Positions 2,463 to 49,044 of a DNA stretch of 64,000 nt are shown here, piece after piece. Each line of letters starts with the position of its first letter. The first letter of the stretch is position 1. The DNA is from Candidatus Collierbacteria bacterium GW2011_GWA2_42_17. GTDB taxonomy: Bacteria; Patescibacteriota; Microgenomatia; UBA1400; MFAQ01. The position numbers and the translations under genes are program-made. Under the pieces are notes generated by a model. The model worked only from the letters and a program-made list of their open reading frames with translations. It was not told the origin of the DNA and ran no database searches. The stretch spans positions 1,596 to 65,595 of the forward strand of contig LCDA01000003.1 in NCBI GenBank assembly GCA_000998275.1, in the 5' to 3' direction.

Positions 2463-2708
2463 CTATTCCGGTTGGTAGCCAAGATTAGTGATGACCTTCT
2501 TGATGGAGTTGAGATCTGTTTTTTCCGGATCAAAAGTAATTTTGGCTACGGATTTTTGGTAGCTAGTGTCGGATGAAGAAACCCCCGGTGTATCCTCGAG
2601 AGCGAGATCAATGTTGGCGGCACAGGAGGTGCAGTGGAGACCAGAAAGTTTTAGAGTAGTAGTTTGGAGGTGATCATTTTTGGTTTTGGATTTAAGAAAA
2701 TTGAACAT
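2463..2708 (-). CDS. HMA-domain metallochaperone (CopZ-like, CxxC variant GLHCTSC)
   Basis: 81 aa. LSGLHCTSCAANIDLAL carries the CxxC of the heavy-metal-associated ferredoxin-like fold. It lies 9 bp downstream of the DsbD_2-like gene on the same strand. Confidence 0.75.
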   Translation of the reverse strand: MFNFLKSKTKNDHLQTTTLKLSGLHCTSCAANIDLALEDTPGVSSSDTSYQKSVAKITFDPEKTDLNSIKKVITNLGYQPE

Positions 2709-2717
2709 AAGTATTGA

Positions 2718-3740
2718 TTAATTAATAATATTGAAACGGCCGGTGTACATACCCATGGAGCAGGAGAAGACAAGAGCACCGAGTTTTTTGGGGGTGAACT
2801 CGATGATGGTTTCTCCGGTTTCGGGGAGAAGTTTTTGAATGTTTAAGGCAGGGATAGTGAAGGAACGAGAGCAAGACTGAACATTGATAGTCCTAAGAGT
2901 GAGGCGGACAGGAATGTCTTTTTTTAGGGTAAGGGAGTTAGGAGAGTAACCACTATTGTTGACGGTGATAGAGATGTTTTGAATACCGTTTTTAACTGAA
3001 ACATTGGTATCGTCGGTACTCGCTGAAAGAACCGAAGGGTTGACGGCAGCTCGATAGAAGTTCTGGATGGTGTAAACAGAACCAGTTAAACCGACGCCGT
3101 TGTTTACGGAGTAAATGGACATACCGATAAGGGCGGCAGCGGCAATTTGGGGAAAATACTTTTGAAAAGCTTTGGCACCGGAGCTAAGGAGGAAACCAAA
3201 AAGCAGGAAGGTAGGCGAGGTGCCTACAATAAAGGCAAACATAATAGCGGCGCCGTATAAAGGATTGCCGGTACCAATGGCGATAACCTCAGTAGCCTGG
3301 GTGACAGCGCAAGGAAGAAAGACTGTTGATAAACCCAGAAGAAAAGGAGCAAAAAGAGACTGACTTTGAGACTCATTTTTGGCCAGACGGACTAGAAATT
3401 TGGGGGGTTTGATGACGAAGTAACGGAAAAGGGGGTGGAGGTTAAGAAGGTTACCGGCGATACCCAAAAGATAAATGCCGATGATGATCTGAATCCAACC
3501 TCGAGTGATAGGAGAAAGGACGAGGGTTTGGCCGAGAGCACCAAGAAGGAAGCCGAGGAGAGTATGAATTAAGAGTTTACCGGTGAGGAAGGAGACGATG
3601 GGGAGGGCCTTGTTGGTTTTGATCAGACTGTTTTCCTGATGGGCGATTACCGAAGTAAGAAGTCCTCCCTGGATGGCAAGGCAGGTGAGTCCGCCGGTAG
3701 TTAAGCCGGTGAGGAAGATGAAGAAGAGATTAGTGTTCAT
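2718..3740 (-). CDS. DsbD_2-like polytopic membrane protein fused to a C-terminal cupredoxin-like domain
   Basis: Multiple TM helices with an LPC motif (FLPCAVTQATE) and GNPLYGAAIMFAF, as in the second family member at 5153-6691. The C-terminal roughly 100 aa (PNSLTLKKDIPVRLTLRTINVQSC...FSCSMGMYTGRFNI) is a cupredoxin-like beta-sandwich signature. Start set at the internal ATG (MNTNLFF). Confidence 0.65.
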   Translation of the reverse strand: MNTNLFFIFLTGLTTGGLTCLAIQGGLLTSVIAHQENSLIKTNKALPIVSFLTGKLLIHTLLGFLLGALGQTLVLSPITRGWIQIIIGIYLLGIAGNLLNLHPLFRYFVIKPPKFLVRLAKNESQSQSLFAPFLLGLSTVFLPCAVTQATEVIAIGTGNPLYGAAIMFAFIVGTSPTFLLFGFLLSSGAKAFQKYFPQIAAAALIGMSIYSVNNGVGLTGSVYTIQNFYRAAVNPSVLSASTDDTNVSVKNGIQNISITVNNSGYSPNSLTLKKDIPVRLTLRTINVQSCSRSFTIPALNIQKLLPETGETIIEFTPKKLGALVFSCSMGMYTGRFNIIN

Positions 3741-3773
3741 AAATCGGTATTTATTACTATACCAGCTTTGCGT

Positions 3774-3788
3774 GCTACAATACGTAGT
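3774..3788. promoter_or_regulatory. Candidate BlaI/CopY-type operator (GCTAC-N5-GTAGT) abutting the repressor start codon
   Basis: gctacaatacgtagt, with GTAGTAT directly before ATG 3791. Related to the dyads at 5138-5152 and 13316-13330. Confidence 0.4.
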
Positions 3789-3790
3789 AT

Positions 3791-4165
3791 ATGGAATCAA
3801 AATTGTTTGGTTGCTTGGAACAACAGATTATAGATGTTCTTTGGCAAGAAAAGAAACCCTTAAAGCCATTGGATGTCTTGAAACAGCTTAAAGGGGATTA
3901 TGCCTACACGACAGTGATGACGGTTTTGAAGAGAATGTCAGATAAAAAGGTATTAACCAGAGAAATGGTTGGTAAAGCATATGTCTACTCTCCAGTTTCG
4001 AACAAAGAGGTCTATATTAAGAAGAGCTTGAAAAACCTGTATGGTAATTTGATGGATACTTATGGCGAACTTGCGATATCTCAGTTCGTAGACATGGTAA
4101 AAAACGACCGAGAGGATATGAACCTTCTTAAACGGTTTATTGATTCTTCCAAAAAAGCTAAATGA
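3791..4165 (+). CDS. BlaI/MecI/CopY-family winged-helix transcriptional repressor
   Basis: LEQQIIDVLWQEKKPLKPLDVLKQL...YAYTTVMTVLKRMSDKKVL matches the penicillinase-repressor family N-terminal wHTH. There is no C-terminal CxC...CxC copper motif. ATGA overlap with the next gene. Confidence 0.85.
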   Translation: MESKLFGCLEQQIIDVLWQEKKPLKPLDVLKQLKGDYAYTTVMTVLKRMSDKKVLTREMVGKAYVYSPVSNKEVYIKKSLKNLYGNLMDTYGELAISQFVDMVKNDREDMNLLKRFIDSSKKAK

Positions 4166-5109
4166 ATTATAGAAAGTTAAATTCTTTTTCTAATCTTTTT
4201 TTCGTGTTTTTGGTGTTTGTGGGTTTGATTTATACGGTGTTCCTTTTTAAATTATTTTTGGATACGTCTCCCGGGTTGGTGATGTTGTTGATTTTTTTGA
4301 TGGATGCGATTCGGTATGGATACAGTATGGTTTCGATCCAGTCTTTGGGTGTACTACTTGTCTCTTCCCTGATTAGTATTACCACTCAAGTTCTGATATA
4401 CAGATACATCAAAGCGTTGTTGATGACATTAAAGATTGTGGGTGGCACCCGTCATTTTACGAAGAGTCTCGAACTGGTTTCAATAAAGGATAAAATAGTT
4501 ACCTTTAGTTCCAGTTCTATCAGAGCTTTCACTTCTGGACTGTTACATCCAAGAATTCATCTCCCTAAAAACCTTAAGGAAACGAATTCTAGTCTGGAAG
4601 TAAAAGCGATAATGCTCCACGAGAAACAACACACTTTGGCTTTCGATCCGTTTAAGAGCTGGGTCGTTGGTGGAATTAAGGAGATATTACCGGGATTTCC
4701 TTTCAAAAAATGGATATTTGGACACTATGATGTCTTGGTGGAGTTAACGGCCGATGCATACGCCGAAAAAATATTAAACAAAAGACTGCCAATAATTTCT
4801 GCCTTATATAAACAGTATGAAGGCAGCGGCAAAAATATTATTCCAGCGGTCGGTTTTTCGAATAGCCAATCAGAAAGGATTCATATCTTGGTGGGGAAGG
4901 AACGAGTCAAAATAAAAGGACCTTTGGTGGTATCGTCTGTTGTGGTAATGACATTATTTGTTGGTACATTGCTGACGAGGAACAAAGACTTATTTTATAG
5001 CTGCCCACACTTAGATTCGTGTATTTTAAATGTCATTGCCCAAAAAACAAGTAACTTTGGGGTGTCGGAAATAGAAGCCGCCCAGTCAGTATTAGGTAGC
5101 CATCAATGA
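4162..5109 (+). CDS. BlaR1/MecR1-like M56 family membrane metallopeptidase (signal transducer without a penicillin-binding sensor domain)
   Basis: N-terminal TM helices, then AFTSGLLHPRIHLPKNL and the zinc motif HEKQH (HExxH) typical of M56. Translationally coupled to the BlaI-like gene. Confidence 0.8.
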   Translation: MNYRKLNSFSNLFFVFLVFVGLIYTVFLFKLFLDTSPGLVMLLIFLMDAIRYGYSMVSIQSLGVLLVSSLISITTQVLIYRYIKALLMTLKIVGGTRHFTKSLELVSIKDKIVTFSSSSIRAFTSGLLHPRIHLPKNLKETNSSLEVKAIMLHEKQHTLAFDPFKSWVVGGIKEILPGFPFKKWIFGHYDVLVELTADAYAEKILNKRLPIISALYKQYEGSGKNIIPAVGFSNSQSERIHILVGKERVKIKGPLVVSSVVVMTLFVGTLLTRNKDLFYSCPHLDSCILNVIAQKTSNFGVSEIEAAQSVLGSHQ

Positions 5110-5134
5110 ACTTCTCCTTGACAATTAATGAAAA

Positions 5135-5155
5135 CATACTACACTATGTAGTATG
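5135..5155. promoter_or_regulatory. Perfect 9/3/9 palindrome operator CATACTACA-cta-TGTAGTATG overlapping the start codon; TTGACA -35 at 5118-5123
   Basis: The palindrome is read directly. Its right arm ends in ATG 5153. Core ACTAC-N5-GTAGT. The -35-like TTGACA lies 30 nt upstream of the ATG, suggesting a leaderless or very short leader. Confidence 0.55.
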
Positions 5156-6691
5156 TTGAATTATAATCAGGAGCGGACAGGCTTAAAATTTTATATAAGG
5201 GGGATGCACTGTGCTTCTTGCGAGATGATTATTGAGAAGAAGTTGCGCAAAGAAAAGGGAGTTTTGCTGGTTGAGGTTGACTTGAATAAAGGATTGGTGG
5301 AGATAGCAACATCTGGAAATAGCCATCTTTCGGAAGATTATCTAAATTATCTTTTTAAAGATGACGGCTATACCTTTTTTAGTAAACCGATCGATAAATC
5401 GATACAGGTCAAGGGAAAAACCGAGTGCGAAACTGCCTGCGAGAATAAGCCCAGCGGAGAAATAAACTACACGCCTTATATGATAGCGGCCTTGTTTTTG
5501 GCTGGTTTTTATATCTTGCAAAAAACAGGCTTTGCTTCATTGGTTTCCGTTAATTCCCAGTCCTCACTACCGGTATTTTTCTTGTTTGGCATACTGGCCG
5601 GACTATCAAGCTGTGCGGCTTTGGTGGGAGGAATCATTCTTTCGTTAAGTAAACAATGGCTGTCTATTTATGATAAAAATGATTCTTCGCTAAAAAAATC
5701 CGAACCGCATATTCTTTTTAACGTCGGTCGGGTTTTGGGATACGGAGTTTTTGGGGGTTTGTTGGGGTTTTTGGGAAATGTATTTAGAGTTTCCCCGGCT
5801 TTTTCGGCATCTTTAGTAATTGGGGTTTCGATTTTGATGATACTTCTTGGTTTGCAAATGCTTGGAGTTAAGGCTTTAGCTAAGTACCAGCTACGCTTCC
5901 CAAAATCTATCACTGGTAAATTTTCTAACGAAGAAAACTTTCAGGGTAGGTTTGGGCCATTTTTGATGGGAGCACTTACTTTCTTTCTACCTTGTGGATT
6001 CACAATCACTGTTCAGGCGCTGGCCCTAGCTTCGGGAAATCCGCTACAAGGAGCTTTGATAATGGCGGTTTTTGCCTTAGGTACAATTCCCGGTTTGTTG
6101 GTGATTGGACTGAGTAGTGTGAAACTATTTAGTAATCCCGAAATAGCGAAACAATTTTCGATTGTGGCAGGAATCTTGGTTCTATTTTTTGCCGCTTTTA
6201 ATATTAACGCTCAGATGTCCGTCTTGGGATTATCAAATATTAGTGATGTCTTGGCGGCGACAACTTCGGCGGGATCTTCGGATAAAAGCCGCGACACTTC
6301 CTTGGTGCCTGTCGTGTCCGGAAAACAAATTATCAAGATGAATGCCTCGTCAAGAAGTTATACCCCGAACCGATTTAAGATTAAAGTCGGTCAGCCGGTA
6401 CGATTGGAGGTTACTGATGTGGGAACGAGCGGCTGTACCAATGCCATAATTTCTAAACTGTGGAATGGTCAAATATCATTAACTCAGGGTAAGACATCCG
6501 TAAAAGAGTTTACTCCCTCAAAGGTGGGTCTTTATAAATTTTCTTGCTGGATGGGTATGGTTTCCGGAACAATTGAAGTGGTTGACGGAACGGGTTCTTC
6601 AGGGACAACGACAAGTACCAAACCAATCGAGTCCGGCGCCAAAGGATGCGGTTGTGGTGGGGGTAGTGGTTCCTGCGGAGGTTCTAAGTAA
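5153..6691 (+). CDS. HMA domain + DsbD_2-like membrane domain + cupredoxin-like domain fusion protein with a Cys/Gly-rich C-terminal tail
   Basis: N-terminal GMHCASCE (HMA), polytopic core with FFLPCGFTITVQALALASGNPLQGALIMAVFALG, C-terminal PNRFKIKVGQPVRLEVTDVGTSGC...FSCWMGMVSGTIEV cupredoxin-like module, and a GCGCGGGSGSCGGSK tail. Confidence 0.7.
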   Translation: MLNYNQERTGLKFYIRGMHCASCEMIIEKKLRKEKGVLLVEVDLNKGLVEIATSGNSHLSEDYLNYLFKDDGYTFFSKPIDKSIQVKGKTECETACENKPSGEINYTPYMIAALFLAGFYILQKTGFASLVSVNSQSSLPVFFLFGILAGLSSCAALVGGIILSLSKQWLSIYDKNDSSLKKSEPHILFNVGRVLGYGVFGGLLGFLGNVFRVSPAFSASLVIGVSILMILLGLQMLGVKALAKYQLRFPKSITGKFSNEENFQGRFGPFLMGALTFFLPCGFTITVQALALASGNPLQGALIMAVFALGTIPGLLVIGLSSVKLFSNPEIAKQFSIVAGILVLFFAAFNINAQMSVLGLSNISDVLAATTSAGSSDKSRDTSLVPVVSGKQIIKMNASSRSYTPNRFKIKVGQPVRLEVTDVGTSGCTNAIISKLWNGQISLTQGKTSVKEFTPSKVGLYKFSCWMGMVSGTIEVVDGTGSSGTTTSTKPIESGAKGCGCGGGSGSCGGSK

Positions 6692-6709
6692 TTACAAATT
6701 ATAAAAAAT

Positions 6710-6928
6710 ATGAAGATAAACAATCTTTCCTTTCTAATAAATGACATGCACTGTAAATCATGTATTAAAATAATTGAAGCTACCCTTTCAGAGATCCCGG
6801 GTGTAAAAATAACCGACTCGGATTTTAAGAAAAAAACTGTAAGTATTACTTACAACATTGATACGACGACCCCGGAAATATTAATAAATACCATAAAAGA
6901 AATCGGTTATAAAGCTGAGATCGTCTAA
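6710..6928 (+). CDS. copZ: Copper chaperone CopZ (HMA domain)
   Basis: 72 aa with [14 protein letters not shown] (CxxC) and a ferredoxin-like HMA layout, immediately upstream of the Cu-ATPase. Confidence 0.85.
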
Positions 6929-6933
6929 AACTT

Positions 6934-9315
6934 ATGAGCGTCACCAACAATGAGGTAAAAGACAGCACTTCCCAGGTAGCCTATCTGGAAATTTCCGGTA
7001 TGCATTGCAGTAGTTGTGCGAGTCTGATTGAAAGGTCTCTTACAAAAACAAAGGGAGTTCAGGAGGCAAATGTTAATTTTGCGACGAGTAAAGCCAGAGT
7101 CAAGTTTGATACAAAACTGGCAACTTTGAAAAACCTCAAGGAAGCCGTTAAATCCGCCGGTTACAGAGCGGAGGTTCCTTCAGAAACAAGTTCCAAGTCG
7201 GAAACCGAAAAAAGATCGCTCGAAATTAAGTATTGGTTTACCAAGTTTATTGCCGGCTTGGTGTTAAGTTTACCGATGCTGTTCTTTATGGTGTATGACT
7301 TTGTCCCCAATCTTCCCTTCGCCAGAACAATCATGCCTATCTCCGGATTGATTTCTTTAATTCTTGCCACGCCGGTTCAGTTCTGGGTCGGTAATAACTT
7401 TATTCAAGGGGCGATCTCTGCCTTTAAGATGAAAACCTTTAGCATGGATTCGCTAATTGCCATTGGTACACTGACGGCCTTTGTTTATAGTACCTTTGAG
7501 TATGTAGCGTACATTGTGAATACCGGCTCAGTTTTTGGTTTAGATGGAATGAAAATAGGGAATCTATATTATGAAGTAGCGTCTCTTTTGATTACGTTTG
7601 TGGCTTTGGGAAAATGGCTCGAAGCTAAAGCTAAAGGAAAGACTTCACAGGCAATCGAAAAACTGGTCGGGTTGGCACCGAAAACGGCCAGAGTAATGAG
7701 AGATGGTTCTCCGGTTGACCTTCCCGTTGGAGAGGTGATTGTCGGAGACATTGTCGTTGTTCGTCCAGGAGAGCGAATTCCCGTGGATGGAGTAATTGTT
7801 TCAGGGTCGAGCTCGGTAGATGAGTCAGCTCTTACCGGAGAGTCGATTCCCGTAGAAAAAGTGGTTGGAGCGAAAGTGTTTACAGCGACGATTAATAAAA
7901 CCGGAAGTTTTGAGTTTGAGGTACAAAAAGTGGGTGATGATACAGTATTGTCGCAGATAGTTAAATTGATTGAGGATGCTCAAGGAACCAAGGCTCCAAT
8001 TCAAGGATTTGCCGACAAAATATCTTCGATTTTTGTGCCTACAGTTATCGTGATAGCGATACTGACTTTCCTACTTTGGTACTTTATTCTGGGAGCCTCC
8101 TTTGAGTTTGCTATTTTGGCCTTTGTCTCGGTAATTGTGATTGCCTGTCCGTGTGCTTTGGGACTTGCTACCCCTACTGCGATCATGGTGGCGACAGGTA
8201 AGGGTGCCGAACAAGGAATCCTGATTAAGGGTGGAGAGCCATTGGAAACTGCCTGCAAGATTGAGACTATTGTTTTCGACAAAACAGGGACACTCACTAA
8301 AGGCCAACCGGAAGTGACGGATATCGTGAACTACTCAGACAAATCGGAGCAGGAAATACTAGCGATTCTTTATGCTTTGGAGTCAAAATCCGAGCACCCC
8401 TTGGCGGCGGCCATTGTTGATTACTGCAAGAGTCGAGTTTCGACAAAAGACAGGCAGACTGCAACGGCGGACTTTAAAGCAGTTCCTGGTCATGGAGTTG
8501 AGGGCAAGATTAACGGAAAAACGTATTTTGTGGGTAATCGCCGCTTGATGGAGTTGAAGAATATTCACTCATACTCACTTGTGGATTTGGAGAAACTGGA
8601 AGAGGGTGGTAAAACGGCGATGCTAATTGCTTCGACGAAAAAAGTATTGGGTATCGTAGCCGTGGCTGATCGAGTGAAAGAAACAACGGCCAAGGTAGTA
8701 AAAAAACTGCAGGATCAGGGAATTGAAGTTTATATGATCACCGGCGACAACCAGAGGACGGCCAACGCGATTGCTAAACAAGTTGGCATTACCAAGGTAC
8801 TGGCTGAAGTACTGCCACAGAATAAGGCGGAGGAGGTCAAGAAGTTACAAGCACAGGGAAAGATTGTGGCCATGGTAGGGGACGGTATTAACGACTCTCC
8901 GGCATTAGTTCAATCCGACCTGGGAATTGTGATGGCATCTGGTGCCGACGTGGCTTTGGAGTCCGGAAGTATCATCATTATGAATAATGATCTGGAAGGG
9001 ATACTAACAGCGATCAAATTGAGTAAAGAGACGGTTGGAAAGATTAAACAAAATATGTTTTTTGCTCTCTTTTACAATGTTTTGGGTATCCCGGTAGCGG
9101 CTCGAGCTTTTGTCTCGTTTGGTTTGGTTCTTAAACCAGAACTGGCCGGACTAGCGATGGCTTTGTCTTCGGTCTCGGTGGTAAGCAACTCATTACTACT
9201 TAAAGGATTTAATCCAAAACGGTTTAATCTCATTTCCCGTCTGGCTCCCATTGTAATGACCGTGGGTTTCCTTTTTATCTTTTGGCAGTTTGCTTCTGTC
9301 TCATCAATGAAGTGA
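6934..9315 (+). CDS. copA: Copper-translocating P1B-type ATPase
   Basis: N-terminal HMA (GMHCSSCAS), TM4 [17 protein letters not shown] phosphorylation site, [10 protein letters not shown] hinge, TM5 YN and TM6 MALSS Cu(I) signature. Confidence 0.95.
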
Positions 9316-9327
9316 GACGGGAGATCG

Positions 9328-10443
9328 TTATCTAATTGATTTGTAACCGCCAAGAACTCCTCTTTTGGACAAGACGATTTGCCAGAGCTGAATATTCCTG
9401 GATCTAAACGATCCGGCAGAGGAGAGGAGATAGTATCGCCACATGCGATAAAATTTTTCGTCGTAGTTTGATCTTATTAACTTCCAGTTTTTTTCAAAAT
9501 TACTATGCCAAGCCATTAATGTCTTGTCGTAATTAACTCCGAGATTATGCCAGTCTTCCATGACAAATAGTCCTTCTATGGACTGACCTAACTGTTTAAT
9601 CGAGGGCAGCATAGAGTTGGGAAAGATATATTTACCGGTCCAGGGATCAGTTCCCGTCACTGAGATGTTGCCACCAATGGTGTGGAGCAAAAACAAACCA
9701 TCATCCTTAAGGACTTTGTGGGCGACTTTCATAAAAGTTCGATAATTTTTGTAGCCTACGTGTTCAATCATGCCGAGAGACACGATGTGGTCATAGCTAC
9801 CTTTGATATCACGGTAATCTTGAAGCAGAGTTTCAACAGGAAGACCTTTGTAAAGTGAGTCGGCAAGTATTTTCTGTTCTTTAGAGACAGTGATCCCTTT
9901 GGTTTTTGCACCATATTTTTCGGCAGCGAAACCAAGAAAACTACCCCAACCGGAACCAATGTCTAGGACTCTTTGTCCAGGTTTAAGACTAATCTTCCGA
10001 CAAATGAGGTCTAGCTTGGCTTCTTGGGCGTCATCAAGATTGGTGGAGTTTTCCCAGTATCCGCAGGTATAGGTGAGGCGTTTGTCTAGCATGGCCCGAT
10101 ACAAGTCATTGCCGATGTCGTAGTGTTTACGGCCAATTTCAAAAGCTTTTGATTTTCTACCCGCATTTAAGACGACGTTTAAAGTGAGTCTGGCGGCTAG
10201 GGCTAGATTATTTTTGACCTTACGGTCCAGACTAGCAGAAAGAATCTTGTCAAAAAACTGGTCGAGTTTTTTACAGTCCCACCAACCGTCCATGTAGGCT
10301 TCGCCAAGACCCAGTGATCCATGTTTGAGTACTCGTCCATAAAAATCTTCGTTGTGTATTTGGGGGTCGTACGGACGACTACCATTTATGGTGACACCTG
10401 TTCCGGAAAGCAATGCTTTGATAATCGCTTTATCCTTGGTCAT
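9328..10443 (-). CDS. cfa: Cyclopropane-fatty-acyl-phospholipid synthase family SAM-dependent methyltransferase
   Basis: VLDIGSGWGSFLGFAAEKYGAKTKGITVSKEQ (motif I), HVGYKNYRTF, and a length of about 370 aa typical of CFA synthases. Confidence 0.85.
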   Translation of the reverse strand: MTKDKAIIKALLSGTGVTINGSRPYDPQIHNEDFYGRVLKHGSLGLGEAYMDGWWDCKKLDQFFDKILSASLDRKVKNNLALAARLTLNVVLNAGRKSKAFEIGRKHYDIGNDLYRAMLDKRLTYTCGYWENSTNLDDAQEAKLDLICRKISLKPGQRVLDIGSGWGSFLGFAAEKYGAKTKGITVSKEQKILADSLYKGLPVETLLQDYRDIKGSYDHIVSLGMIEHVGYKNYRTFMKVAHKVLKDDGLFLLHTIGGNISVTGTDPWTGKYIFPNSMLPSIKQLGQSIEGLFVMEDWHNLGVNYDKTLMAWHSNFEKNWKLIRSNYDEKFYRMWRYYLLSSAGSFRSRNIQLWQIVLSKRGVLGGYKSIR

Positions 10444-10496
10444 ATGCTTTTATGATACGCCAAGTGAAAGATTTTTCACAGTTTTTAATTTAATAT

Positions 10497-10694
10497 TTAG
10501 TGACAATTTTTTTTGGAATTATCACCACTATTATCATGGCTCATGTTTTTCATCATAAAGATATGCATAACCGGACAGATGAGAAAAATACCATATGGTA
10601 GCAGAATATTCCAGGGAACTTTGAGGACATAGACAACAATAAAAGAGAGAGTAACTAAGACAAGAGATATTTTAAAGGTATTGTTTATTTTCAT
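10497..10694 (-). CDS. Small membrane protein, DUF2933-like (CP.MH..MM motif)
   Basis: Taken from the internal Met MKINNTFK... It has one TM plus LICPVMHIFMMKNMSHD, resembling the metal-island-associated DUF2933 signature. Start is uncertain. Confidence 0.4.
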   Translation of the reverse strand: MKINNTFKISLVLVTLSFIVVYVLKVPWNILLPYGIFLICPVMHIFMMKNMSHDNSGDNSKKNCH

Positions 10695-10696
10695 GT

Positions 10697-11008
10697 TCAA
10701 GGTAAAAGAGGTCCGCCGTTGTATCCCGGTATCCACCAGGGAATAAATAAATAAACGATAAAGATGTAGCTTGTGATTGAATAGATGGCGACAAGCAAAA
10801 GTGCTTTTAACAGGCCCGTTTTTTGTCTGCGGAGTTGCCACCAAGCAAGAAATAACAGGAGCAAACTAGGAATTAATAAATATTTATTTTGGCTCTCATT
10901 GGTGAGTTTCAATAAATATCCCGAGCTGATGAGGAAGATGAGAATACCGCCACAACAAATGAAGTGAATTATGATGAAGGGAATTGCGCCTCCAATTAAT
11001 TTTTTCAT
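10697..11008 (-). CDS. MerT-like small membrane protein with a vicinal Cys pair in TM1
   Basis: 103 aa, three predicted TMs. IHFICCGGILIFL recalls the MerT CC motif. Lies within the metal island. Confidence 0.4.
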   Translation of the reverse strand: MKKLIGGAIPFIIIHFICCGGILIFLISSGYLLKLTNESQNKYLLIPSLLLLFLAWWQLRRQKTGLLKALLLVAIYSITSYIFIVYLFIPWWIPGYNGGPLLP

Positions 11009-11035
11009 GGTTGTGGCAGCACTTGGATATTTTAT

Positions 11036-11980
11036 TTAAACTCCACAACCGCCACCGCCCTGCTTGGGTGGTTGTTCAATGATGCCTTCACTGCTTAGCC
11101 ATTGCTTGGCTGCCTGCCAGCCGGAGGATGAAGAGAACTCTCGACCAAGGAGTGTTTTGGCATCGATGTCGGCGAAGTTTTTACTTTCTTTATTTTTGAA
11201 ATACAAGGCTAGGTCATAGTAGTTACCTGGGAACCAAAAAGCGCTGAAATATTTACCTGCCTCGTACATTTCTTTTTCACTGGCTCCGTTTGAGGCCATT
11301 AACTCTAAGACAGCGAGTAAGGCCATGCCATGATTACAGTCGGGGAAAGCGGTAGAGTTGTTGCAGCAAGGACGGAAAATATTTGAAGCAACTTCTTTTA
11401 CCAGTTTCTCTTGTGCCGGGGTGAGTTTGATGAAGTTTGCTTTGGAGTAGTATTTCATGGCATCACCTTTTGCCAGAGTCCAACCACCGGTAGAAGCAAA
11501 TCTAGCGGCACCTTTAAGCCCGCCGTCTTTTACCATGTCTCCCGCGTCCAAGATGGATGATTTGTTGGACAACCCAAGTGCCCAGAAGAAGTTCAGGAGA
11601 AATTTGCTGTTTAATGAGGTAATTTTTACAGGAGTGTTGCTACCTTTGGTGAGGATATCAAGCTGTTCCTGATCGAGGTCTTGTCCGGAAGCACTGTATG
11701 CCGCTTTAAATTTTTCCAAGTCGATAACACCGAGAGCGATCATTTTTGGACCCAGATCACCAAAAGCGGCGTTTATTTCATATCCTTGATCAGGATTGAC
11801 CTCTTCAAGGGAGACAGTTTCCCCTTTGTTTGTTTGACTCTGTGTGGTTTGTTCTTGGTTGGCGGTTCCGCCACTATTAATTTTCACAATATAGAAGCCT
11901 TGGCCTATATTCACTCCAAAACTGGCGAGTAAAAGTAGGGGAATAACTTTACTTCGGAAATTAGTCGTCTTTTCTTTCAT
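11036..11980 (-). CDS. Secreted hypothetical protein with Cys-rich segment and GGGGCGV C-terminus
   Basis: Signal peptide (VIPLLLLASFGVNIG), RPCCNNSTAFPDCNHGMA cluster, C-terminal QPPKQGGGGCGV. Overlaps the upstream gene by 20 nt, consistent with an operon. Confidence 0.55.
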   Translation of the reverse strand: MKEKTTNFRSKVIPLLLLASFGVNIGQGFYIVKINSGGTANQEQTTQSQTNKGETVSLEEVNPDQGYEINAAFGDLGPKMIALGVIDLEKFKAAYSASGQDLDQEQLDILTKGSNTPVKITSLNSKFLLNFFWALGLSNKSSILDAGDMVKDGGLKGAARFASTGGWTLAKGDAMKYYSKANFIKLTPAQEKLVKEVASNIFRPCCNNSTAFPDCNHGMALLAVLELMASNGASEKEMYEAGKYFSAFWFPGNYYDLALYFKNKESKNFADIDAKTLLGREFSSSSGWQAAKQWLSSEGIIEQPPKQGGGGCGV

Positions 11981-12800
11981 AGTTTTTAAATTTAATAATT
12001 AATTTATAAAATAAAAATAAGATGAGGGAAAAAACTAAGAGATCGACAATTCGATTTTGGAAATACTTTGATATATTAAAGACGATATTCCTGATCACTT
12101 GACCATAGACATCTTTTTCTGAACTCATTTGGATTTTGTCGAAGTAGTTTAAAATCGTAATGGTGATGCCGGACAAGAAAAAAATGCCTACTCCAAGAAA
12201 CTGGAATATTTTGTATATTTTGGCTCTATTTTTGCCGATGAGGCCGGTCACCTTTGAGTAAGACATGGAGATGAGCATGAGAGGAAACACGATTCCCAGC
12301 ACATAAGCGATAGAGACTAGTAGGGCTTGGAACATAGTGGGTGAGAGAGAGGTCAGTGTAACCGCGGCAAAAAGAACCGGGGCGCAACAGGCTGAGGTGA
12401 GGCCGGACATCAAACCGAGAACGAACACCGACCAAGTGTTGGTTTTTTGACCAACCCGGGGGTTGACATGGAAAATTTGGGGGAGATGAAATACAGGCCA
12501 GATGGTCATTAGCCCCATAAATACCATAAAGGCGCCACCTAAGTAGTAGACTTCTTTGTGGTAAGCATCCAAAAAGAAAATGAAAAAGCGGAAACCTAAG
12601 GATATCGGAATAAGAATGAAGGAGAGACCCAAAGCAAAAAGCAGGGTATAGAGCAGAACCCTTTTGCGATCTTTGAAGATAGTACCGAAGTAAGAAGGCA
12701 AGAGAAAGGTAATGCAGCAGGGGGCAAAGAGAGCCAAGACTCCGGCGATGAAAGAAGCGGTGAGAGAGACTCCCAGGAAAAGATTTGGATCTAAGTTCAT
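11961..12800 (-). CDS. CcdA/DsbD-family-like polytopic membrane protein with two CC motifs
   Basis: About 7 TM helices. FAPCCITF in TM1 and TSACCAPVLF in a later TM. Resembles cytochrome-c-biogenesis CcdA / thiol:disulfide or metal transfer proteins. Confidence 0.6.
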   Translation of the reverse strand: MNLDPNLFLGVSLTASFIAGVLALFAPCCITFLLPSYFGTIFKDRKRVLLYTLLFALGLSFILIPISLGFRFFIFFLDAYHKEVYYLGGAFMVFMGLMTIWPVFHLPQIFHVNPRVGQKTNTWSVFVLGLMSGLTSACCAPVLFAAVTLTSLSPTMFQALLVSIAYVLGIVFPLMLISMSYSKVTGLIGKNRAKIYKIFQFLGVGIFFLSGITITILNYFDKIQMSSEKDVYGQVIRNIVFNISKYFQNRIVDLLVFSLILFLFYKLIIKFKNYERKDD

Positions 12801-13315
12801 TTGGTAATGTTGGCTTTCATTCTTAATATGATCTTTGAGAAATCGGGGTCGTTGGTGTCGATGTATACCTCACGGATGATGACACCATAAACCGGCATGG
12901 TGAAGGGGCGATAGATGACTCTAATGGTTGCTTCAGCTCCAGGAGCTATGTTGACTACCTCGAGAGATCGCTTGCTCATACCATATTCTTTGGTTTCTTG
13001 GTCTCCGCTAATTATTTTGGCTGAGGTACAACCGCAACTGGAATTAATATTTCTAAGCTGAAGTGTTTTTTCACCAATATTTTTGACAATAAAGTCTCTC
13101 GTAATGGTGTCTTTTAATTTCGAGATTCCCGTGTCGACAAAGTTTTCGGGTAATTCAACTTTGGGTTTTTGGGTATCTGTCTGGGTGTAAGAGGTGGTAG
13201 GGGAGCTTGAGGTTTTTTTACTGAGGAGACTGATGGCAAACAGCGAAAGTATCGCTACTAAAGCTGTGCCGAAGACGATCATAATGATTGTTTTGATGCT
13301 GGTAGTATTCAACAT
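12797..13315 (-). CDS. DUF1573-family membrane-anchored protein (SCGCT motif)
   Basis: N-terminal TM, then an Ig-like region with NINSSCGCTSAKI, characteristic of DUF1573. Start is probably the ATG at 13315 (the track's longer ORF starts at an alternative codon at 13351). Confidence 0.55.
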   Translation of the reverse strand: MLNTTSIKTIIMIVFGTALVAILSLFAISLLSKKTSSSPTTSYTQTDTQKPKVELPENFVDTGISKLKDTITRDFIVKNIGEKTLQLRNINSSCGCTSAKIISGDQETKEYGMSKRSLEVVNIAPGAEATIRVIYRPFTMPVYGVIIREVYIDTNDPDFSKIILRMKANITK

Positions 13316-13333
13316 ACTACCTAGTGTAGTAGA
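13313..13333. promoter_or_regulatory. Second ACTAC-N5-GTAGT dyad operator in the divergent promoter region; -10 TATAAT at 13340-13345
   Basis: catACTACctagtGTAGTag. On the minus strand this reads CTACTACA-ctag-GTAGTATG, ending in the ATG of the DUF1573 gene. A perfect TATAAT sits 9 nt before ATG 13354. Confidence 0.5.
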
Positions 13334-13353
13334 ATATTTTATAATAGTCAACT

Positions 13354-13806
13354 ATGAAAATATTAGCCGTCTTTCTTACCATTGCAGTTATCGTCGTTGG
13401 TGTCGTGATATTCAAATCATCACGAGCGAAACCATTGATTGTTTACGATGATCAAGAAATAACCAGATACGTGGCTCCGACAATAGAGCCACGAGTCGAG
13501 CCGAAACCCACTTCGACATCAAGTCAAAAAGCAGTTCAAGTGATTAGAGCCACTTACAATATTGAGGATGGTCTTAGCCCAAGCCGATTTAAAGTGAAAG
13601 CCGGTGTTCCGGTTAGACTGGAAGTTAAGGCCATTGTTGATGGTCTGGGTTGTATGGGAAGTATTACAATTCCTGAGCTAACGGATGAGGTTTATGGATT
13701 TGAGAAGGATGTAACTAATGTATTCGAAGTAACACCACCCTCTCCAGGAGAGTACGTGATTACCTGTGCTATGGGAATTCCACACGGAGTAATTATTGCC
13801 GAGTAA
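13354..13806 (+). CDS. Membrane-anchored cupredoxin-like domain protein
   Basis: N-terminal TM, then SPSRFKVKAGVPVRLEVKAIVDGLGCMGSITIPEL...GEYVITCAMGIPHGVII. Same module as the C-termini of the two DsbD_2 fusions. Confidence 0.6.
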   Translation: MKILAVFLTIAVIVVGVVIFKSSRAKPLIVYDDQEITRYVAPTIEPRVEPKPTSTSSQKAVQVIRATYNIEDGLSPSRFKVKAGVPVRLEVKAIVDGLGCMGSITIPELTDEVYGFEKDVTNVFEVTPPSPGEYVITCAMGIPHGVIIAE

Positions 13807-16552: not shown

Positions 16553-16624
16553 ACATTTAGTATAAGCATTTTTTTTGATAAATATTTTTTCGGCCTTGAT
16601 TTGGGAATGATGTAGAATCGAGTT

Positions 16625-17104
16625 ATGAACGAAAAAATAAAGCCAGTACCGACTGATTTTAATTCGGAAAAAATGGAGATTGTTATGAGGGCAAACGACG
16701 AAGGTCCACTGGGGGAGATAGAGAGTTGGAAGGAAGCTTTTCCGGAGGTTGAGTTTATGGATGTTGATGAAGCGTTTAGCGGTGACAAGATCGATTGGGA
16801 TCAAAGGACAGTAGTGGAGAAGGCGCTGTTTGTTGCTTTTATGAAAGATCCTCAGTCGACAAGTGTTAGATATGAAATGAAGCTGGACAATATTTACCTG
16901 TCCAAGACAGTTACCGACTCCGAAAGAGTCTGGTGGATGTGGATGGCAGGCTGTTTTTCCGGTGGGGAGCTTGATGAAAAAGCAATAAAAACGTTTTTAT
17001 GGTATGTGGATGAGAGTATTTTAGCGAGACGATTTACCAGGGATATAGATCTGGAAAGGGTAAAAAACATCAAGTACAAAATAAAAGTGGCGCCTTTGGA
17101 ATAA
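16625..17104 (+). CDS. Hypothetical protein
   Basis: 159-aa ORF, acidic N-terminal half and W-rich segment (RVWWMWMAGCFSGG). No known motif. Confidence 0.45.
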   Translation: MNEKIKPVPTDFNSEKMEIVMRANDEGPLGEIESWKEAFPEVEFMDVDEAFSGDKIDWDQRTVVEKALFVAFMKDPQSTSVRYEMKLDNIYLSKTVTDSERVWWMWMAGCFSGGELDEKAIKTFLWYVDESILARRFTRDIDLERVKNIKYKIKVAPLE

Positions 17105-46504: not shown

Positions 46505-46561
46505 TTTTGACTATCCGAAATAGCGCTACTTGCGCTAGTAGACTCTCCGAAATAGCGCTAC
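46505..46561 (+). repeat. Two copies of a 25-bp direct repeat, each a hairpin (tagcgc-tactt-gcgcta)
   Basis: ccgaaatagcgctacttgcgctagt occurs twice, 7 bp apart, between the big secreted-protein gene and the M16 peptidase gene. Confidence 0.5.
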
Positions 46562-46595: not shown

Positions 46596-47837
46596 ATGGA
46601 TACAAATTTTCGTCAAATAAATATTAACGGAGCGTTAGTTGCCTTGTATAAAACAAATTCATTAAAAACGATTAGCCTTGATGTAAGAATTAAAGCTGGA
46701 TCTTGGTATGAAGATAGTGAAAAGTGGGGGAAGGCACATTTGCTTGAACATATGATGTTTCAAGGTACTGAGATGTTTTCCGATAGTAAGGCAATGGAGA
46801 TTTACAAAGAAGAAAACGGGATTTGGAGTAATGCGTCGACGAGTGGTCAAAGGATTGAATTGATAATGAAGATGCCAAGTGAATCAATTATCGCCGGATT
46901 AAGACTAATGGAGGAAATGTTGTTTAAGACGAAAATCTCTGAGGATAAACTGGCAAAAGAAAAAAAGGTTGTATTACAGGAGTATGAAGATAAATGGTCT
47001 AGGTCCGGAGTAAGGTTTTCAAAAAAAGTAGATCAACAATATTTTGGAAAAAACCATCTCTACACAAGAGATGGTCTGGGCGATAAAGAATACCTGAATA
47101 CTGTTTCAATGGCAGATTTAATTGAGTATCAGAAAGAAATGTTTGTGCCTGCAAATATGGTAATTGGAATAGCGGGAAATATCGATTTTGAATCGATTGA
47201 AAAAGAACTACGGAAGATGCTTATCCTATCGGGAAATGTAATTGAAAAGAAATTTAACAAAGTACAACCACAAACAGAAAGACTGATTCATTATGAGTCG
47301 GGAATGTCGACAGTGATTATTGATGTCGGTTGGACGATTGGGGGTATTGCAGAGACTACCTTTGAGGATCGATTAAAAATGGGAATTGCGGCATACATTC
47401 TTGGAGGGAGTCCGAGGTCATTATTACATTCAAAAGTTCGTGAGGAGTTAGCTTTGGCTTACAGTATTTCGATGGTTTTTGGATACTATCAAGTTGCGGG
47501 ATGGATTAGTGTGAAATCTTCAGTAAAACCGGAAAATCTGGAAGAAGTACTGAAAGAGATAGATTCTGTGATTGAAACATTCGTAGACCATCCAATTAAA
47601 GCCGATCTTTTTAATAGGGCAAAAAAATATTTAGGAATGAGTGAACAAATGAAGTTTGAATCGACAATGAATATTGCAGGAAATCTTTGTGGTTATTTAT
47701 TTTGGGAGGGTAGGGTTGTTCTTCCTGAAGAATACGAAGCAATTTTGGAAAAAATAACAGAAGATCAAGTAAGAATGGTTCTAAAGGAGGCAATTGATGG
47801 AAAGAAGCCATTGATATCAATAATGAAGTCAGAGTAG
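46596..47837 (+). CDS. M16 (pitrilysin/insulinase) family zinc peptidase
   Basis: Inverted zinc motif HLLEHMMF (HxxEH) at the N-terminus, a downstream Glu, and an overall length of about 410 aa. Confidence 0.8.
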   Translation: MDTNFRQININGALVALYKTNSLKTISLDVRIKAGSWYEDSEKWGKAHLLEHMMFQGTEMFSDSKAMEIYKEENGIWSNASTSGQRIELIMKMPSESIIAGLRLMEEMLFKTKISEDKLAKEKKVVLQEYEDKWSRSGVRFSKKVDQQYFGKNHLYTRDGLGDKEYLNTVSMADLIEYQKEMFVPANMVIGIAGNIDFESIEKELRKMLILSGNVIEKKFNKVQPQTERLIHYESGMSTVIIDVGWTIGGIAETTFEDRLKMGIAAYILGGSPRSLLHSKVREELALAYSISMVFGYYQVAGWISVKSSVKPENLEEVLKEIDSVIETFVDHPIKADLFNRAKKYLGMSEQMKFESTMNIAGNLCGYLFWEGRVVLPEEYEAILEKITEDQVRMVLKEAIDGKKPLISIMKSE

Positions 47838-48876: not shown

Positions 48877-49044
48877 TTATTTTTTCATTTTAGTGCTGAA
48901 TGCGAGGGTTATTAGTCCCAGAACTACAAGAACTAGTCCAGGGAGGGAAAGATGGGCTTGGGGATCGGTAGCATGGAGAAAAAGAAGGATTGATCCCAGG
49001 GCAAGGCTAATAAAGCCGCCAAAGACGACAAAGTTTTTTTCCAT
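48877..49044 (-). CDS. Small two-TM membrane protein (55 aa)
   Basis: MEKNFVVFGGFISLALGSILLFLHATDPQAHLSLPGLVLVVLGLITLAFSTKMKK. AAGGAG SD 6 nt upstream. Not in the ORF track (under 60 aa). Confidence 0.45.
   Translation of the reverse strand: MEKNFVVFGGFISLALGSILLFLHATDPQAHLSLPGLVLVVLGLITLAFSTKMKK

Follow-up and report, generated by a model that had tools for sequence, protein, structure and literature searches.

The DNA analyzed here is a 64,000-nucleotide stretch (the window) of contig LCDA01000003.1 (positions 1,596 to 65,595, forward strand) from Candidatus Collierbacteria bacterium GW2011_GWA2_42_17, a member of the candidate phyla radiation (CPR; Patescibacteria) with a GC content of about 43%. 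Toward one end of the window lies a gene cluster for the handling of copper and thiols in the envelope; its one regulator is a repressor of the BlaI family. Three copies of the 17-bp palindrome TACTAC-N5-GTAGTA (3773-3789, 5137-5153 and 13315-13331) were detected in this cluster, and we regard them as putative operators of the repressor. The genes of the cluster, with protein families assigned by Pfam, are listed below.

2463-2708, minus strand: HMA protein, downstream of the 2718-3740 gene and in the unit divergent from the repressor gene
2718-3740, minus strand: DsbD_2-cupredoxin fusion
3791-4165, plus strand: BlaI-family repressor (Penicillinase_R), 124 aa
4162-5109, plus strand: BlaR1-like M56 membrane metalloprotease, 315 aa, HEKQH motif, sub-threshold match to Pfam M56
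5153-6691, plus strand: HMA-DsbD_2-cupredoxin fusion, head of the likely operon 5153-9315
6710-6928, plus strand: HMA chaperone (CopZ-like)
6934-9315, plus strand: P1B ATPase (CopA-like) with an HMA domain and a CPC motif
10497-10694, minus strand: DUF2933 protein, end of the likely operon 10497-13315
10697-11008, minus strand: 103-aa membrane protein, likely in the DUF1573 operon
11036-11980, minus strand: 314-aa protein of unknown function, likely in the DUF1573 operon
11961-12800, minus strand: CcdA/DsbD_TM-like protein, likely in the DUF1573 operon
12797-13315, minus strand: DUF1573 protein, for which gene callers use the ATG at 13315
13354-13806, plus strand: cupredoxin-like protein
14300 to about 16552, minus strand: second P1B ATPase, with an HMBD domain

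The repressor matched the Pfam family Penicillinase_R (PF03965) with 75.1 bits (cut-off 22.6) over profile positions 2-114 of 115, and a search of the window for a second paralogue of this family found none, leaving it the only such gene. The gene for the M56-like protein overlaps the repressor stop codon by 4 nt. The genes between 10497 and 13315 overlap or adjoin and are therefore likely to form one operon. For the HMA-DsbD_2 fusion, public annotations differ in the start codon, which is placed either at 5153 (512 aa) or at 5204 (495 or 496 aa). The shorter form begins at the Met of the GMHCASC motif and would lose the first beta-strand of the HMA domain. The start at 5153 is backed by the HMA domain match, which needs residues from position 13 on, and by an orthologue (locus L010) that has GLHC in place of GMHC and thus offers no internal Met to start from. 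The second P1B ATPase carries a His-rich N-terminal stretch, HSDHEHHETPSSDNKHESHQGH, and in its transmembrane metal site CPD replaces CPC/CPH.

The initial annotation had described an ACTAC-N5-GTAGT dyad at three promoters, and all three sites are where it placed them, with 5-bp arms and a 5-nt spacer. Site 1 (3774-3788) reads GCTACAATACGTAGT; two bases, AT, separate it from the ATG at 3791. Site 2, ACTACACTATGTAGT at 5138-5152, is enclosed, also as described, by the perfect 9/3/9 palindrome CATACTACA-CTA-TGTAGTATG at 5135-5155, which ends with the ATG at 5153. At 13316-13330, site 3 reads ACTACCTAGTGTAGT, and the minus-strand ATG of the DUF1573 gene reads CAT at 13313-13315; the extent of 13313-13333 given earlier for this site has to be shortened to 13313-13332, since the string quoted for it is 20 nt. 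Lengthening each ACTAC/GTAGT arm by one base yields a fuller 12-position pattern, TAC[TG]AC-N5-GT[AC]GTA, on which the sites score as follows.

O1 (site 1), 3773-3789: TGCTAC-AATAC-GTAGTA, 11 of 12 positions, between the divergent genes starting at 3740 (minus strand) and 3791 (plus strand)
O2 (site 2), 5137-5153: TACTAC-ACTAT-GTAGTA, 12 of 12 positions, core of the perfect palindrome at 5135-5155
O3 (site 3), 13315-13331: TACTAC-CTAGT-GTAGTA, 12 of 12 positions, between the divergent genes starting at 13315 (minus strand) and 13354 (plus strand)

These sites are far more frequent than chance would give. In the 64 kb, ACTAC-N5-GTAGT with at most one mismatch was found five times (0.79 expected), a number reached in 0 of 100 shuffles. 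A pattern scan had been proposed together with the sites; run on the window with the 12-position pattern, it returned sites 1-3 and no others at 11 of 12 or better (0.15 expected), and two full matches where 0 were expected. The remaining two one-mismatch matches, at 48923 and 49928, scored below 10 of 12 and were taken as chance occurrences.

Sites 2 and 3, the latter read on the minus strand, have 24 nt in common with a single mismatch, ACTACACTA[T/G]GTAGTATGTTGAAT (5138-5161 and 13307-13330), and this identity includes the first three codons, Met-Leu-Asn. It is not kept in orthologues (in locus L001 the protein starts Met-Val-Lys) and may stem from the promoter module having been duplicated recently in this genome. 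The DUF1573 coding sequence contains a third half-site, GTAGTA at 13302-13307, at a distance of 7 nt from the TACTAC arm belonging to site 3. With it a different inverted repeat is possible, GGTAGTAT-N5-ATACTACC, and this repeat is the minimum-free-energy fold of the RNA. An Rfam search of the entire window gave no match.

The dyads coincide with promoter elements, which were either read directly or detected by a consensus scan.

3756-3764, minus strand: extended -10 element TGgTATAGT, read from the sequence, in the putative promoter of the gene starting at 3740
3773-3781, plus strand: extended -10 element TGcTACAAT of the repressor promoter, read directly, within the left half of O1; the ATG is 9 nt past the hexamer
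5118-5145, plus strand: promoter TTGACA-16-TACACT, from the consensus scan; the -10 hexamer (5140-5145) is inside O2 and the ATG follows after 7 nt
13323-13351, minus strand: promoter TTGACT-17-TACACT of the DUF1573 operon, from the consensus scan; O3 contains the -10 hexamer, and 7 nt later comes the ATG at 13315
13340-13345, plus strand: TATAAT, followed by 8 nt and the ATG (13354) of the cupredoxin-like gene; O3 overlaps its -35 region, with a putative regulatory role

At sites 2 and 3 it is the inner part of the left half-site that makes up the -10 hexamer. The distances of 7 nt (TACACT, sites 2 and 3) and 9 nt (TACAAT, site 1) between hexamer and ATG are kept in orthologues. O1 spans about -24 to -40 of the divergent promoter of the 3740 gene. 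O1 and O3 thus overlie the -35 regions of the opposite promoters, so that one dyad can repress two divergent promoters and the regulon would consist of five transcription units. Where three promoters had been proposed, the three putative operators plausibly control five. Some other details of the earlier description needed adjustment. The right arm of the dyad was said to run straight into the ATG, which is the case at sites 2 and 3, whereas at site 1 the ATG lies 2 nt further from the dyad. The reported TTGACA at 5118 and TATAAT at 13340 are both present, but the latter precedes the ATG at 13354 by 8 nt instead of 25-35 nt. Both ATPase genes were said to lack the motif, and indeed neither has a site of its own. 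However, gaps of only 18 and 5 nt separate the genes behind site 2, so the first ATPase (6934) is most likely co-transcribed with them and very probably belongs to the regulon through its operon. The second ATPase gene has its own leaderless-type promoter, with TATACT 6 nt before the ATG, and no BlaI dyad.

To follow the dyad beyond this genome, we collected homologues of the repressor and fetched their loci. In orthologous loci the repressors are 39-76% identical to that of the window, and the gene order of repressor, M56-like protein, HMA-DsbD_2-cupredoxin fusion and ATPase recurs in L001, L005 and L010. A scan of genome contigs yielded distant relatives only, with identities of 51% or less, and these served to define the family-wide motif, not the orthologous regulon. 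The orthologous repressor promoters read TGCTACA[AC]T-NN-GTAGTAT-ATG, with TGCTACA[AC]T present in L001, L003, L005, L010 and L093. When nine repressor promoters were aligned, the only invariant columns were CTACA.T..GTAGTAT, and the flanks were not conserved. Likewise, in the HMA-fusion promoters of four orthologous loci only TTGAC (the -35 element) and TACTACA.T..GTAGTATG, -10 included, were invariant. The dyad and its distance to the ATG therefore stay constant in orthologous loci while the flanking DNA diverges. The arrangement expected of autoregulation, with O1 holding the extended -10 element of the repressor gene's own promoter, is kept in nine orthologous loci. L005 has extra sites, one dyad adjoining a minus-strand ATG divergent from an ATPase gene and another upstream of a YtkA-like gene.

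Across the family, a set of 160 unique BlaI-family loci from Patescibacteria, Actinomycetota, Longimicrobium, Holophagae, Bacillota and others was examined. An N5 dyad scoring at least 11 of 12 occurred within 160 nt upstream of the repressor gene in 57 of them, and the density of dyads upstream of repressor genes was 27 times that elsewhere in these loci; variants with N4 and N6 spacers were also found. A second perfect dyad usually follows the blaR1-like gene, ahead of the target gene. An architecture of operator, blaI, blaR1-like gene, operator and target is, judging from these loci, general. Behind the second operator, loci of other lineages often have a gene for a DsbA-like, Thioredoxin_4, AhpC/TSA or Cys-rich secreted protein.

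The spacer variants include a second BlaI/M56 pair that stands beside the orthologous one in L001 (16245-17512). Its repressor is 36% identical to that of the window, and the half-sites of this pair are unchanged but stand 4 nt apart: TACTAC-AATA-GTAGTA is 4 nt before the ATG of the repressor, and TACTAC-ACTT-GTAGTA is 3 nt before an ATG of a Thioredoxin_4/DSBA gene. N4 sites occur as well in the WWE3 loci L007-L009. It may be that spacer length insulates paralogous BlaI regulators from each other.

Comparison with characterized repressors points to BlaI of Mycobacterium tuberculosis (Rv1846c). Its curated sites are TACGAC-AGCGA-GTAGTA at its own promoter and TACGAC-CGGTC-GTCGTA at blaC (supplement of PMC4757040, citing Sala 2009), and against this 6-5-6 operator, TAC[GT]AC-N5-GT[AC]GTA, the window sites score 11, 12 and 12 of 12. 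The structure closest to the repressor family profile is also M. tuberculosis BlaI (2G9W, E value 3.5e-15), ahead of Bacillus licheniformis and Staphylococcus aureus BlaI and MecI, with matches to 1SD4 and 1OKR as well. The two systems, the mycobacterial one being BlaI/BlaR (Rv1846c/Rv1845c), share half-sites, the N5 spacing, a site at the autoregulated repressor gene, and a BlaR partner without a penicillin-binding sensor domain. By sequence, the operators of the window appear to belong to a class that is already known, the M. tuberculosis BlaI-type operator and regulon. The differences lie elsewhere. M. tuberculosis BlaI controls blaC and ATP-synthase-linked genes, whereas the predicted targets in the window handle copper and thiols. 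In addition, the operator here is merged with both -10 element and start codon, a CxHx3C tail is conserved in the BlaR-like protein, and the host is a CPR bacterium.

Other members of this repressor family fit less well. The BlaI/BlaR1 and MecI/MecR1 systems of S. aureus and B. licheniformis combine a Penicillinase_R repressor and an M56 protease (in the window, an M56-like protein) in one operon, likewise with a dyad overlapping the promoter, but their operator core is TACA/TGTA with a different spacing, their BlaR1 has a C-terminal beta-lactam sensor domain, and their targets are beta-lactamase and penicillin-binding protein 2a. CopY/CopR resembles the repressor studied here in protein fold family and in the kind of genes controlled (copA, copZ). 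Its cop box is TACAnnTGTA, or the 16-mer RNYKACANNYGTMRNY (PMC7253601), and the dyads of the window have a spacing one base longer; CopY responds to direct Cu(I) binding, whereas induction here would presumably proceed by proteolysis. C-terminal cysteines of the CopY type (CxCx4CxC) were sought in the repressor and 23 aligned homologues, and none were found. The initial annotation had likened all three sites to TACA/TGTA half-sites. This holds for site 2, which has both, 3 nt apart (TACA-CTA-TGTA), but not for sites 1 and 3, which have CGTA or GGTA in place of TGTA, and it is the M. tuberculosis BlaI operator that fits instead. With the CopY Cys motif also missing from the repressor, a reading of the sites as cop boxes was rejected. 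Finally, Clostridium thermocellum BlaI_0696 binds inverted hexamer repeats 5 nt apart (PMC8457756). BlaI_0696 and BlaI_1845 of this organism, studied by DNA affinity purification sequencing, have small self-regulated regulons and the same hexamer spacing; however, their half-site is GTCTAT and dyad pairs are required, whereas here there is one dyad per promoter.

The BlaR1-like protein bears on how such repression might be relieved. A profile of its orthologues matches S. aureus BlaR1 (8EXP) only in residues 112-320, the transmembrane and protease region (E value 2e-5), and most homologues carry precomputed M56 and M48 matches. It has no penicillin-binding (class D beta-lactamase-like) sensor domain: the match ends at residue 320 of the 602 of BlaR1, and the protein itself ends about 45 residues past its last transmembrane helix. 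'Atypical' BlaIR systems with a sensor-less BlaR have been described in M. tuberculosis, Mycobacterium abscessus and Pseudomonas aeruginosa, and their signal is unknown (bioRxiv 10.64898/2026.08.03.742534). On its domain content, the BlaR1-like protein of the window belongs with these atypical proteins. The tail after the last transmembrane helix contains C281-x-H283-x3-C287, and the motif F-Y-x-C-P-H-[LI]-x-x-C is kept in orthologues; in 68 of 85 family members the last 75 residues include a CxnC motif, often as one His with three Cys. On the repressor side, the motif AISQFVD is near-invariant, with F99 invariant and the other six residues kept in at least 90% of sequences. Q98-F99 aligns with the N-F pair of BlaI/MecI and with H-F of M. 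tuberculosis BlaI. The N-F bond of BlaI/MecI is reportedly the site of BlaR1-dependent cleavage.

Taken together, these data make it likely that the BlaI-family repressor encoded at 3791 uses the dyads as its operators, that they serve five units, and that the mRNAs starting at the dyads are leaderless or nearly so; induction triggered by the protease is a hypothesis. The earlier proposal of a small regulon of this kind finds support in the conservation of the dyad-ATG relation, the co-occurrence of the dyad with BlaI genes, the match to M. tuberculosis BlaI sites and the -10 element inside the dyad. A repressor dimer would bind TAC[TG]AC-N5-GT[AC]GTA. The left half-site would double as the -10 element of a sigma-70-type promoter, so that bound repressor would block RNA polymerase sterically, and at O1 and O3 it would also cover the -35 regions of the divergent promoters. 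The units predicted to be controlled are the autoregulated blaI and blaR1-like genes; the DsbD_2-cupredoxin and HMA genes; the HMA-DsbD_2-cupredoxin fusion with the CopZ-like chaperone and CopA-like ATPase genes; the DUF1573/CcdA-like operon; and the cupredoxin-like gene. Transcription from the embedded -10 elements would begin at the A of the ATG or 1-3 nt before it, and the three resulting transcripts would thus be leaderless or nearly so. For induction, we infer that an envelope signal, with copper or thiol stress as the best candidate, activates the co-transcribed sensor-less M56-like protease through the extracytoplasmic CxHx3C tail of the latter. The activated protease would cut the repressor near Q98-F99, homologous to N101-F102 of S. 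aureus BlaI/MecI, with loss of dimerization and DNA binding.

It should be noted, however, that several observations weigh against parts of this interpretation. No terminator was predicted in the 43-nt gap between the blaR1-like gene and the gene at 5153, and read-through from the blaI-blaR1 operon into the latter is therefore possible. The BlaR1-like protein, although it has the HEKQH motif, scores only 24.8 bits against Pfam M56, under the curated cut-off of 31. The equivalent of the scissile bond is Q-F and not N-F. In other lineages, DsbA-like and peroxiredoxin-like genes are under the same module. Thiol or redox stress, and not metal, could therefore be the signal, and copper is a candidate only. 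Site 1 has a mismatch (TGCTAC) and its ATG is 9 nt past the -10 element, which makes a leader of 1-3 nt there as likely as none. Finally, Shine-Dalgarno motifs are rare across this and related genomes, so their absence at these genes is uninformative, and we dropped it as evidence for leaderless transcripts.

The most serious alternative accepts the operators and denies that the mRNAs are leaderless. Transcription would then start further upstream, with Shine-Dalgarno-independent initiation on a leader containing the operator. This arrangement would suit genomes in which most genes lack a Shine-Dalgarno sequence anyway, and some BlaI-family loci do have 10-50 nt between dyad and start codon, as does the HMA gene of L003 with a gap of about 33 nt. 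However, the only good -35/-10 pairs put the -10 element inside the dyad, and orthologues keep this distance constant. Of 29 N5 dyads in low-GC loci, 17 have their end at -1 to +3 nt from the start codon, and 14 low-GC loci show a constant dyad-to-ATG distance of -1 or +1 nt. In addition, the spacing of 6-11 nt between -10 element and ATG recurs at unrelated genes of this genome. In a survey of the whole window and of three further loci of the same genome (L171, L173 and L174), a -10-like hexamer was detectable at 22 operon-leading genes, and at 12 of these it lies 6-11 nt ahead of the start codon (binomial P 5.6e-5, with a uniform distribution as the expectation). Two further leaderless-type promoters flank 16552 and 16625 (window 16553-16627), and several operon-leading genes also have a TTGACA-like -35 element at 16-18 nt. 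We consider leadered mRNAs to be the less probable case, perhaps a minority chance, and transcripts that are leaderless or carry a leader of 1-3 nt at the three genes to be reasonably probable from the promoter geometry. This geometry is a genome-wide habit and not specific to the regulon, which suggests widespread leaderless mRNAs in this Collierbacteria genome. The two papers found to mention both 'leaderless' and 'Patescibacteria' did not treat leaderless transcripts in Patescibacteria.

Alternatively, the palindrome might act in RNA, where a hairpin in transcripts started upstream would sequester the AUG and serve as a translational switch or a processing site. The missing terminator ahead of the 5153 gene would allow for such transcripts, and in read-through RNA the AUG at site 2 does become part of an 11-bp hairpin (-13.4 kcal/mol, z -4.4). 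However, no dyad hairpin is formed at sites 1 and 3 (z -1.3 and a different pairing), conservation tracks the half-site letters TAC.AC/GT.GTA with no compensatory changes, and the promoter elements put the likely start inside or after the 5' arm, so that the main transcript would be without that arm. This makes an RNA function improbable, and the hairpin is at most a secondary effect on read-through mRNA at site 2.

That the dyads are instead bound by another regulator encoded elsewhere in the genome (for example, a metal sensor of the CsoR, ArsR or MerR type), with the BlaI-like gene nearby only incidentally, is very improbable. In favor of it, the target genes are copper-related, such genes are in most bacteria under CsoR, CueR or CopY and not under BlaI/BlaR1-type systems, and our search of the literature gave no paper that connects BlaR1-like proteases with copper. 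Against it, the cluster holds no further regulator gene and the window a single Penicillinase_R gene, the dyad travels with BlaI-family genes in Patescibacteria, Actinomycetota, Longimicrobium, Holophagae and others whatever the targets, and it matches experimentally defined M. tuberculosis BlaI sites.

Within the preferred interpretation, that of BlaI-family operators relieved by proteolysis, the nature of the signal is tentative. It is possible, although we would not count on it, that the CxHx3C tail senses copper or thiol-oxidative envelope stress and that the protease then cleaves the repressor, which would constitute a proteolytic copper and disulfide stress pathway.

Two features outside the regulon were observed in passing. 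At 46508-46559 of the window, an intergenic direct repeat, CCGAAATAGCGCT, occurs twice and flanks an imperfect palindrome, GCGCTACTTGCGCTAGTAG, ahead of the gene at 46596, which codes for a peptidase M16. On the same contig, but upstream of the window (L171, 760-5148), an open reading frame for a LAGLIDADG_2 homing endonuclease lies in more than 4 kb with hardly any called genes. Intron-containing rRNA genes are known for CPR bacteria, and this stretch may be one.

The regulon is largely ordinary and does not overturn current understanding. Our analysis nevertheless offers a first cis-regulatory map for this lineage, with an operator, promoter elements and a small stress regulon predicted in uncultured Collierbacteria. 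It also indicates that the M. tuberculosis-type BlaI operator is common to many phyla and that AT-rich CPR genomes have it fused to both the -10 element and the start codon of putatively leaderless genes. This fusion, and the pairing of a copper-thiol regulon with a sensor-less BlaR bearing a Cys/His tail, are of modest interest; the content of the regulon and the tail of the protease together suggest a candidate signal for sensor-less BlaR proteins. If the proposed pathway is true, it would be distinct from CopY, CsoR, CueR and CusRS and widespread in CPR bacteria, and it would be the first concrete answer to what the atypical BlaR proteins sense.

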